From assembly GCF_002854065.1 (NCBI RefSeq), contig NZ_CP024147.1: a stretch of 64,000 nt of DNA. One strand, written 5' to 3'. The position numbers were made by a program, and so were the translations under genes. Shown piece after piece: positions 51,936 to 53,063 of the stretch. Numbering within the stretch: the stretch's first letter is position 1; each line of letters starts with the position of its first letter. The notes under the pieces were generated by a model. That model made no database searches, was not told the DNA's origin, and saw nothing but the letters and a program-made list of their open reading frames with translations. This stretch comes from Escherichia coli. Its GTDB lineage: Bacteria; Pseudomonadota; Gammaproteobacteria; Enterobacterales; Enterobacteriaceae.

Positions 51936-53063
51936 TTAGAACTGGTAAACCAGACCCAGAGCTACGATGTTATCAGTGTTGATGCCAGCGTCACGAGTGA
52001 ACTGGTTGTCGTCCAGCAGGTTGATTTTGTAGTCAACATAGGTGGACATGTTTTTGTTGAAGTAGTAGGTCGCGCCAACATCAACATATTTCAGGATATC
52101 TTCGTCGTCGTAGTTACGACCATTGATGACACCCAGGTTTTTACCTTTAGACTGCAGGTAAGCCAGGGACGGACGCAGACCGAAGTCGAACTGGTACTGA
52201 GCAACAGCTTCGAAGTTCTGTGCTTTGTTCGCCCAACCCAGGGAACCTACGCGAGTTGCGTTGTAGGTCTGGGTGTACTGAGCAGCCAGATAGATGTTGT
52301 TAGCGTCGTATTTCAGACCACCAGTGTAGGTTTCAGCACGGTCGCCAGTACCGATCAGACCAGTGTTGTTCTGATCCCAGGTACGTTTGGAGCTGGAGAT
52401 CGCACCACCGATACCAAAGCCTTCGTAATCATAAGTGATAGATCCGCCAACGCCGTCGCCGTTCTGACGCAGAGCTTTACGACCATTGTTGGTGATGCCA
52501 TGACCAGTGAAATCCGGATCATTTTCACCGCTTACGCTGCCATTCTGGCCCTGGTACTGAACAGCAAAGTTCAGGCCATCAACCAGACCGAAGAAGTCAG
52601 TGTTACGGTAGGTCGCGAAGCCGTTACCACGCTGTTGCATGAAGTTGTCAGAACCGTAAGTGTCGCCACCGAATTCTGGCAGTACGTCGGTCCAGGAAGT
52701 TACGTCGTAAACTACGCCGTAGTTACGACCATAGTCGATAGAACCGATGTCCTGGAATTTAAGACCAGCAAATGCCACACGGGTCCAGGAGTTGTTTTCG
52801 CTTTCCGGAGCGTTGCCCTGGATCTGATATTCCCACTGGCCGTAACCGGTCAGCTGGTCAGTAACCTGAGTTTCACCTTTGAAGCCAAGACGCATGTAGG
52901 TCTGGTCGCCATCTACAGACTTGTCGTCAGAGAAATAGTGCAGGCCGTCTACTTTACCGTACAGATCTAATTTGTTGCCGTCTTTGTTGTAAACTTCAGC
53001 AGCGTTTGCTGCGCCTGCTACCAGCAGAGCTGGGACCAGGAGGGACAGTACTTTAACTTTCAT
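51936..53063 (-). CDS. ompC: Outer membrane porin OmpC (variant allele)
   Basis: 375-aa ORF with signal peptide and C-terminal ...LGLVYQF; porin beta-strand pattern; longer than, and divergent in mid-protein loop segments from, the 367-aa K-12 protein as I recall it. Confidence 0.93.

Follow-up and report, generated by a model that had tools for sequence, protein, structure and literature searches.

The porin gene at positions 51936–53063 (minus strand) of the window, by which we mean the whole 64-kb stretch of Escherichia coli DNA that was analysed, is with a probability of about 0.93 the chromosomal ompC gene at its usual site and a natural allele that is already catalogued as WP_000865544.1. 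Recombination has made the gene a mosaic of old loop cassettes, some of which are common to E. albertii. The open reading frame is intact from ATG to stop and has 375 codons plus the stop codon, and its product is identical to the RefSeq protein, which is named 'porin OmpC'.

A sequence-only reading of this DNA had drawn attention to the length of the protein, 375 aa versus 367 aa in K-12, and to stretches in the middle of the protein that were thought to be unlike K-12. Both lengths are borne out, the first by the open reading frame and the second by the OmpC protein (b2215) of K-12 MG1655, which we translated from NC_000913.3 and used as the reference. Both peptide stretches quoted in that reading are indeed present in the window protein and are unlike their K-12 counterparts, one having 33 letters versus 29 and the other 16 letters versus KRTDAQNTAAYIGNGD in K-12. 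The global alignment of the two proteins, by which the reading was to be checked, has 345 columns with identical residues, 22 with substitutions, and 8 with gaps; the proteins are therefore not identical (92% protein identity), and the DNA of the coding sequence is 91.4% identical. The eight extra residues comprise four in the stretch of loop L4 and four in the stretch of loop L7.

Surface loops and related alleles

The strands and loops were assigned from an AlphaFold model of the window protein, and this assignment is in line with the alignment that Beck et al. (2016) derived from crystal structures. The differences from K-12 are found nearly exclusively in the extracellular loops, which bears out the earlier statement that OmpC varies between strains at its surface: 28 of the 30 changed positions fall into loops, which corresponds to a hypergeometric P of ∼7e-11 given that 136 of the 354 residues are loop residues. 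In the following the loops are given in precursor numbering, and all coordinates of ompC features refer to the minus strand. Loop L1 (residues 46–55, 52899–52928) has the two changes N47D and D49S, and loop L2 (residues 83–91, 52791–52817) has the three changes S85A, A86P, and N88S. Most changes are in loop L4 (residues 172–203, 52455–52550), where seven substitutions and the four inserted residues add up to 11 changed positions; this loop is the cassette named 'b1' by Beck et al. Loop L5 (residues 227–241, 52341–52385) carries seven substitutions and corresponds to cassette 'a11', as in strain CFT073. Loop L7 (residues 309–320, 52104–52139) has five changed positions, namely the four inserted residues and G317N, and corresponds to cassette 'e', as in EC869/O157 and O55:H7. 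The loops L6 and L8 are the same as in K-12, the latter (residues 349–365, 51969–52019) being of the RDAGINTDN form, and the constriction loop L3 (residues 116–144, 52632–52718) does not have any differences from K-12.

The only two changes outside the loops are V106I in a periplasmic turn and F109I in strand beta-6 (52737–52748). In mature numbering these are V85I (turn T2) and F88I. Together they give rise to the motif DIGSID, which is common to the MDR_56 allele and to an OmpC protein of E. albertii. Thus, compared to K-12 OmpC (PDB 2J1N) the window allele has the same locus, signal peptide, barrel, L3, L6, and L8, whereas L1, L2, L4, L5, and L7 differ.

Beck et al. (2016; PMC5056734) have surveyed 2,707 predicted OmpC proteins of E. 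coli, among which there were more than 220 distinct sequences, and found that the variation is centred on L4 with 33 forms, L5 with 30 forms, and L7 with 13 forms, which occur in many combinations. By their classification the window allele belongs to L4-b1/L5-a11/L7-e, and its loop sequences exactly match those in their S2 Table. The combination b1/a11/e is also present in the available portion of their S1 Table. The accession WP_000865544 itself does not appear in the available portion of the supplements, in which the S1 Table mostly gives GenBank identifiers, and the allele was matched by its loop class instead.

Three named alleles are instructive for comparison. The closest solved structure is OmpC of CFT073 (2XE1, WP_000865543.1; L4-b1/L5-a11/L7-c), the entry 2XE1 being tied to this strain via Beck et al. 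(2016). It also has 354 mature residues, is 97% identical, and has the same L1, L2, L4, and L5 as the window protein. The two differ in nine of the 354 residues (the CFT073 residue is given first): F88I, three residues of strand beta-10 (V/I, A/G, V/I), one residue of strand beta-14 (V/L), the motif VVAG versus VING in L7, and two residues of L8 (A/D and D/N). OmpC of strain A35H (Beck et al. 2016; L4-b1/L5-a11/L7-e) has the same L4, L5, and L7 cassettes as the window protein and differs, according to a machine-read figure, in five residues, V85I, F88I, V/L in beta-14, and A/D and D/N in L8. The third allele is that of O157:H7 and O55:H7 (EC869 type, WP_000865552.1; PDB 9WCB). Its 3′ third including L7 (VING) and L8 is the same DNA as in the window, but L2, L4 (which lacks an insertion of eight residues), and L5 (SPLY for NTGL) are different; the protein has 367 aa and the DNA identity is 93.4%.

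Mosaic pattern of divergence

When the divergence from K-12 is followed in steps of 200 bp, the coding sequence of ompC differs by 5–19.5% and the maximum (19.5%) is located over L4. The bins adjoining the coding sequence differ by only 0–1% and those of the farther flanks mostly by 0–4%; one bin over ada reaches 6.5%. According to the method of Nei and Gojobori, dN is 0.19 and dS is 0.35 in the surface loops as compared to a dN of 0.004 and a dS of 0.12 in the rest of the gene. Many amino acid exchanges together with a synonymous divergence about threefold that of the barrel point to old divergent sequence blocks in the loops and not to recent point mutation. The pairwise dN/dS of the loops is ∼0.5. 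Being below 1, this ratio reflects relaxed or diversifying constraint plus recombination and does not demonstrate positive selection.

Recombination was assessed with 14 distinct alleles, a small sample that was drawn in even steps down the similarity ranking and that yielded 80 informative sites. The four-gamete test is failed by 29% of the informative site pairs, and the neighbour-incompatibility statistic is below the values of all 2000 permutations of the site order, which is a signature of recombination. The distribution of the individual loops conforms to this result. The short L7 of K-12 recurs in two strains, UM146 and LF4-1, whose L1, L2, L4, and L5 differ. In the window allele L1, L2, L4, and L5 are as in CFT073, and its L1/L2 type is also present in strain 536. 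The last 375 nt of the gene, which include L7 and L8, do not have any differences from the EC869-type allele of the O55:H7 strain DEC5E, whereas 29 alignment columns differ between the same two alleles in the 60-nt bin over L4. Among 5,426 complete genomes the DNA of the L4 cassette occurs in 269, Nissle 1917 among them, and the DNA of the L5 cassette in 802, so that both cassettes are not tied together.

In addition, the allele as a whole is found in different surroundings. The strains Santai and Z0117EC0005 encode the identical protein and their ompC genes are 99.6% and 98.9% identical to the window, respectively. The 2.5-kb flanks are 98.9/98.3% identical in Santai and 98.5/97.0% in Z0117EC0005. 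In both strains the two flanks are less similar to the window than ompC is, and thus the allele crosses chromosomal backgrounds. The cassettes are also found beyond E. coli. The 90% cluster to which the window OmpC belongs also includes a protein of E. albertii (P0008), in which the DIGSID motif is combined with a b-type L4 and the a11 L5, and one of E. marmotae (P0010), whose L4 is of the K-12 type. According to these protein sequences OmpC cassettes cross species borders, which suggests either a trans-species polymorphism or interspecies exchange.

The mosaic allele was put together by homologous recombination from divergent loop cassettes of long standing, which circulate in E. coli and related Escherichia species. 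The driving force which is generally accepted is selection by agents that dock to the loops, namely phages, toxins of contact-dependent inhibition, and antibodies. This view is well in line with the literature, as Chen et al. (2021; bioRxiv 10.1101/2021.09.21.461324) describe a 'mosaic evolution' of ompC and report that the hypervariable loops L1, L2, L4, L5, and L7 coincide with phage-binding sites.

One could go further and regard the combination b1/a11/e plus DIGSID as an old allele class that is kept by balancing or frequency-dependent selection, is part of a trans-species polymorphism, and has a phage and contact-dependent inhibition profile of its own. This extension draws on the identity of the protein across divergent backgrounds and on the cassettes common to E. 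albertii; we consider it possible but rather doubtful. Among the carriers of the identical protein there are 12 synonymous and 0 non-synonymous differences, which at a typical omega of 0.05 has a P of ∼0.13 and hence does not indicate an unusual constraint.

Alternatively, positively selected point mutations within this one lineage, and not the recombination of pre-existing cassettes, could be the main source of the loop differences. Earlier genome scans have listed ompC among the positively selected genes of E. coli (cited in Chen et al. 2021), and the dN of the loops is indeed 50-fold above that of the barrel. Nevertheless, we regard this explanation as improbable, because the synonymous divergence is also about threefold higher in the loops, their pairwise dN/dS is only ∼0.5, identical cassettes turn up again in combinations and backgrounds that are unrelated, and both the four-gamete and the neighbour-incompatibility test indicate recombination.

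Barrel, locus and distribution

The AlphaFold model of the window protein has a pLDDT of 93 and a pTM of 0.89 and comprises 16 barrel strands and an L3 of 29 residues. It was calculated from an alignment of 68 diverse homologues, which were collected by a representative search; with an alignment of 14 E. coli porins alone the pLDDT was 33. The sole region of low confidence is the inserted part of L4 (mature residues 158–166, pLDDT <50). The best matches in the PDB found by Foldseek are 2XE1 (TM 0.96), 2J1N, and 9WCB. At the protein level the barrel is at least 99% identical to that of K-12. The residues K16, R37, R74, R124, D105, and E109, which we take to be the conserved pore-lining residues, are invariant across the alignment of the OmpC alleles.

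We suggest that the window protein would be a standard 16-stranded, trimeric general porin that serves as the usual osmoregulated diffusion channel, as is to be expected from a barrel, a signal peptide, an L3, and expression signals like those of K-12. Its assembly, conduction, and regulation should be like those of K-12 OmpC. In particular, the identity of the barrel, of L3, and of the upstream region with K-12 lets us predict a trimeric, cation-selective channel under the control of EnvZ/OmpR. Since the constriction of the pore is unchanged, a normal porin-mediated uptake of antibiotics is expected.

These properties also bear on the idea that the differences from K-12 are adaptive mutations which were selected by antibiotics and which narrow or re-charge the channel, as in the series from OmpC20 to OmpC33 or in the L3 insertions of OmpK36. 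The nearest PDB entries do stem from a study of OmpC in multidrug-resistant clinical isolates, and CUWW06, the genome that comes closest, was obtained from wastewater. However, L3 is unchanged, the presumed pore-lining set is invariant, and the only changes elsewhere than in the outward loops are V85I (periplasmic turn) and F88I (strand). Moreover, isolates with the same protein come from healthy humans, from animals (otter, baboon, pig, cattle, duck, and frog), and from soil, which is unlike a resistance mutation that arises within a patient. We therefore consider such an origin to be very improbable.

The signal peptide comprises codons 1–21 (53001–53063) and is the same as in K-12 according to the alignment and a check of the translation. 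The mature protein begins with AEVYNK, the first residue (22) of the OmpC chains in the PDB, and ends with VYQF and hence with an aromatic residue. The NCBIfam model for porin OmpC (NF007841) matches residues 1–375 with 756.5 bits (cut-off 484), whereas the protein stays under the cut-offs of the OmpF profile (475.5 bits, cut-off 583) and of the PhoE profile (450.9 bits, cut-off 599). The general porin family PF00267 (Porin_1) in Pfam matches with 467.6 bits. In the porin alignment OmpN is 69% and OmpF 63% identical.

The gene order apbE(ftp)–ompC–micF–rcsD is exactly as in K-12. Downstream of ompC are apbE, ada, and alkB; upstream there is an intergenic region of 738 bp which is followed by rcsD on the opposite strand. 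Within this region only three of the 738 positions (53268, 53479, and 53576) differ from K-12. The 5′ untranslated and upstream regulatory region of ompC (53064–53396, minus strand) contains just one of these, 53268, and presumably carries the OmpR-dependent ompC promoter as established for K-12. The gene of the small RNA micF is at 53397–53490 on the plus strand, divergent from ompC (Rfam RF00033, 116.8 bits, gathering score 79). The difference at position 53479 (C for T in K-12) is inside micF in its terminator-like hairpin (53462–53484). It may also be observed that the regulatory DNA 5′ of ompC is far more conserved than the adjoining coding sequence. A scan for promoter and terminator consensus sequences around ompC gave sites that are no more numerous than in shuffled sequence. 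Of the scanned sites only two are plausible, the micF terminator and a GC-rich, terminator-like hairpin followed by a T run at 51898–51917 (minus strand), which lies 19 bp 3′ of the ompC stop codon and was identified by the consensus scan only.

Given this locus, we attach hardly any credence to the notion that the gene is a paralogous or horizontally acquired porin, such as OmpN, NmpC, OmpF, or a PhoE-like protein, or that a foreign gene has replaced ompC. The loop dS of 0.35, roughly threefold the barrel value, and the cassettes common to the E. albertii protein could be taken as signs of a deep or foreign ancestry of parts of the gene. Against this notion stand the exact K-12 synteny of ompC, the nearly identical promoter and micF region, the score of the OmpC model (756 bits, as compared to sub-cut-off values of 475 with the OmpF model and 451 with the PhoE model), the protein sequence of the barrel, which is at least 99% identical to K-12, and the identities of only 69% and 63% with which OmpN and OmpF align. 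An interspecies origin could apply to short loop segments only.

Concerning its distribution, this is a minority allele that is found in roughly 1% of the complete genomes, yet it is thoroughly known. Among 5,426 complete E. coli genomes there are two, 100416 (human stool, Gambia) and CUWW06 (wastewater, Thailand), in which all 1128 bp of the coding sequence are matched with 100% identity; over the entire 64 kb the window and CUWW06 have 22 differences. In the chromosome records of these 5,426 genomes the coding sequence is matched with at least 99% identity in 52, with 95–99% in 226, and with 90–95% in 4,989. WP_000865544.1 is annotated in four complete genomes, which besides CUWW06 and 100416 are Santai (O157:H16, duck) and Z0117EC0005 (dog). 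For the exact protein, which is named 'MULTISPECIES: porin OmpC [Enterobacteriaceae]', at least 1000 public contigs are on record. The hosts and sources include humans (also healthy ones), pig, cattle, poultry/duck, baboon, otter, frog, soil, and water. The length of ompC products among the complete genomes ranges from 363 to 376 aa. An artefact of assembly or sequencing, a frameshift, or a decaying pseudogene, for which only the length difference of eight residues from K-12 could be put forward, is practically negligible as an explanation in view of this natural length range, of two independent complete genomes with the same DNA, of the at least 1000 contigs that encode the protein, of the intact reading frame with its native start, signal peptide, and C-terminal YQF, and of two insertions that are both in frame and match catalogued loop cassettes.

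Surface recognition and surroundings of the gene

The loop type L4-b1/L5-a11/L7-e allows predictions about the cell surface. The receptor of the toxin CdiA-EC536 consists of OmpC–OmpF heterotrimers, and L4 together with L5 decides about recognition (Beck et al. 2016, PMC5056734). In the same study alleles with L4-b1 plus L5-a11, those of CFT073 and A35H, were resistant to CdiA-EC536, the sensitivity was restored when L5 of strain 536 was swapped in, and L7 and L8 were without a role. By analogy with these published alleles, which have an identical L4 and L5, the window protein would not serve as a receptor for CdiA-EC536, and the strain is probably not a target of toxins of this type.

The sequence-only reading had also referred to the OmpC loops as receptors of phages, and in this respect it is in agreement with the literature, in which both T4 and PP01 are described, in addition to the toxin CdiA-EC536. 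Phage T4 uses the OmpC protein of K-12 but not that of O157, and a phenylalanine in L4 matters for this preference (Washizaki et al. 2016). In the case of PP01, gp38 contacts Ser225/Pro226 in L5 and Val304–Arg308 in L7 of the O157 protein (Terasaki et al. 2026). The window allele has the L7 which is contacted by PP01 and is without the Ser-Pro of L5, and it retains the phenylalanine of L4 amid other neighbouring residues. The adsorption of T4-like and PP01-like phages is probably altered, that of PP01 presumably being reduced for want of the L5 contact, and phages that depend on OmpC, T4 and PP01 among them, might infect the strain differently from both K-12 and O157, a prediction that we make with more reserve than the one for the toxin. 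The same reading had named colicins next to phages. Here the wording was loose, as OmpF is the usual translocator of colicins and OmpC is at most an alternative.

A possible use of these predictions is the choice of phages against the source strain and the interpretation of its antigenicity. Their value is mainly descriptive and there is little in them as discovery: the literature already covers the allele and its loop cassettes, the modular shuffling of the latter, and the role of the loops for phages and contact-dependent inhibition, and nothing here is new.

Some further observations concern the surroundings of ompC in the window. The 2.5 kb on the apbE–ada side are 95.8–98.3% identical between the strains and the window, and those on the rcsD side 98.0–99.2%. 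The 6.5% peak in the comparison with K-12 is local (49600–49799) and corresponds to the 3′ part of ada. Between rcsC and yfaP (60427–60578) the atoSCDAEB operon, which occupies ∼7.3 kb there in K-12, is absent; this junction contains ∼150 bp without a match in K-12, and 100416 and CUWW06 have the same layout. The annotation of CUWW06, the matching genome, gives the autotransporter gene yejO (28395–30986, minus strand) as intact; in K-12 yejO is disrupted. An alpha-2-macroglobulin gene (63010–64000, minus strand) is likewise intact in the annotation of CUWW06, and its K-12 counterpart yfaS is an annotated pseudogene. Two intergenic regions contain tandem repeats. In the eco–mqo region (45029–45355) a palindromic unit of 113 bp, which resembles REP/BIME elements, is present in 2.9 copies versus 5.9 in K-12, and hence its copy number is polymorphic. 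The region between rcsB and rcsC has a length of 313 bp in the window versus ∼200 bp in K-12, and a unit of 114 bp is repeated there in 2.8 copies (57148–57465).
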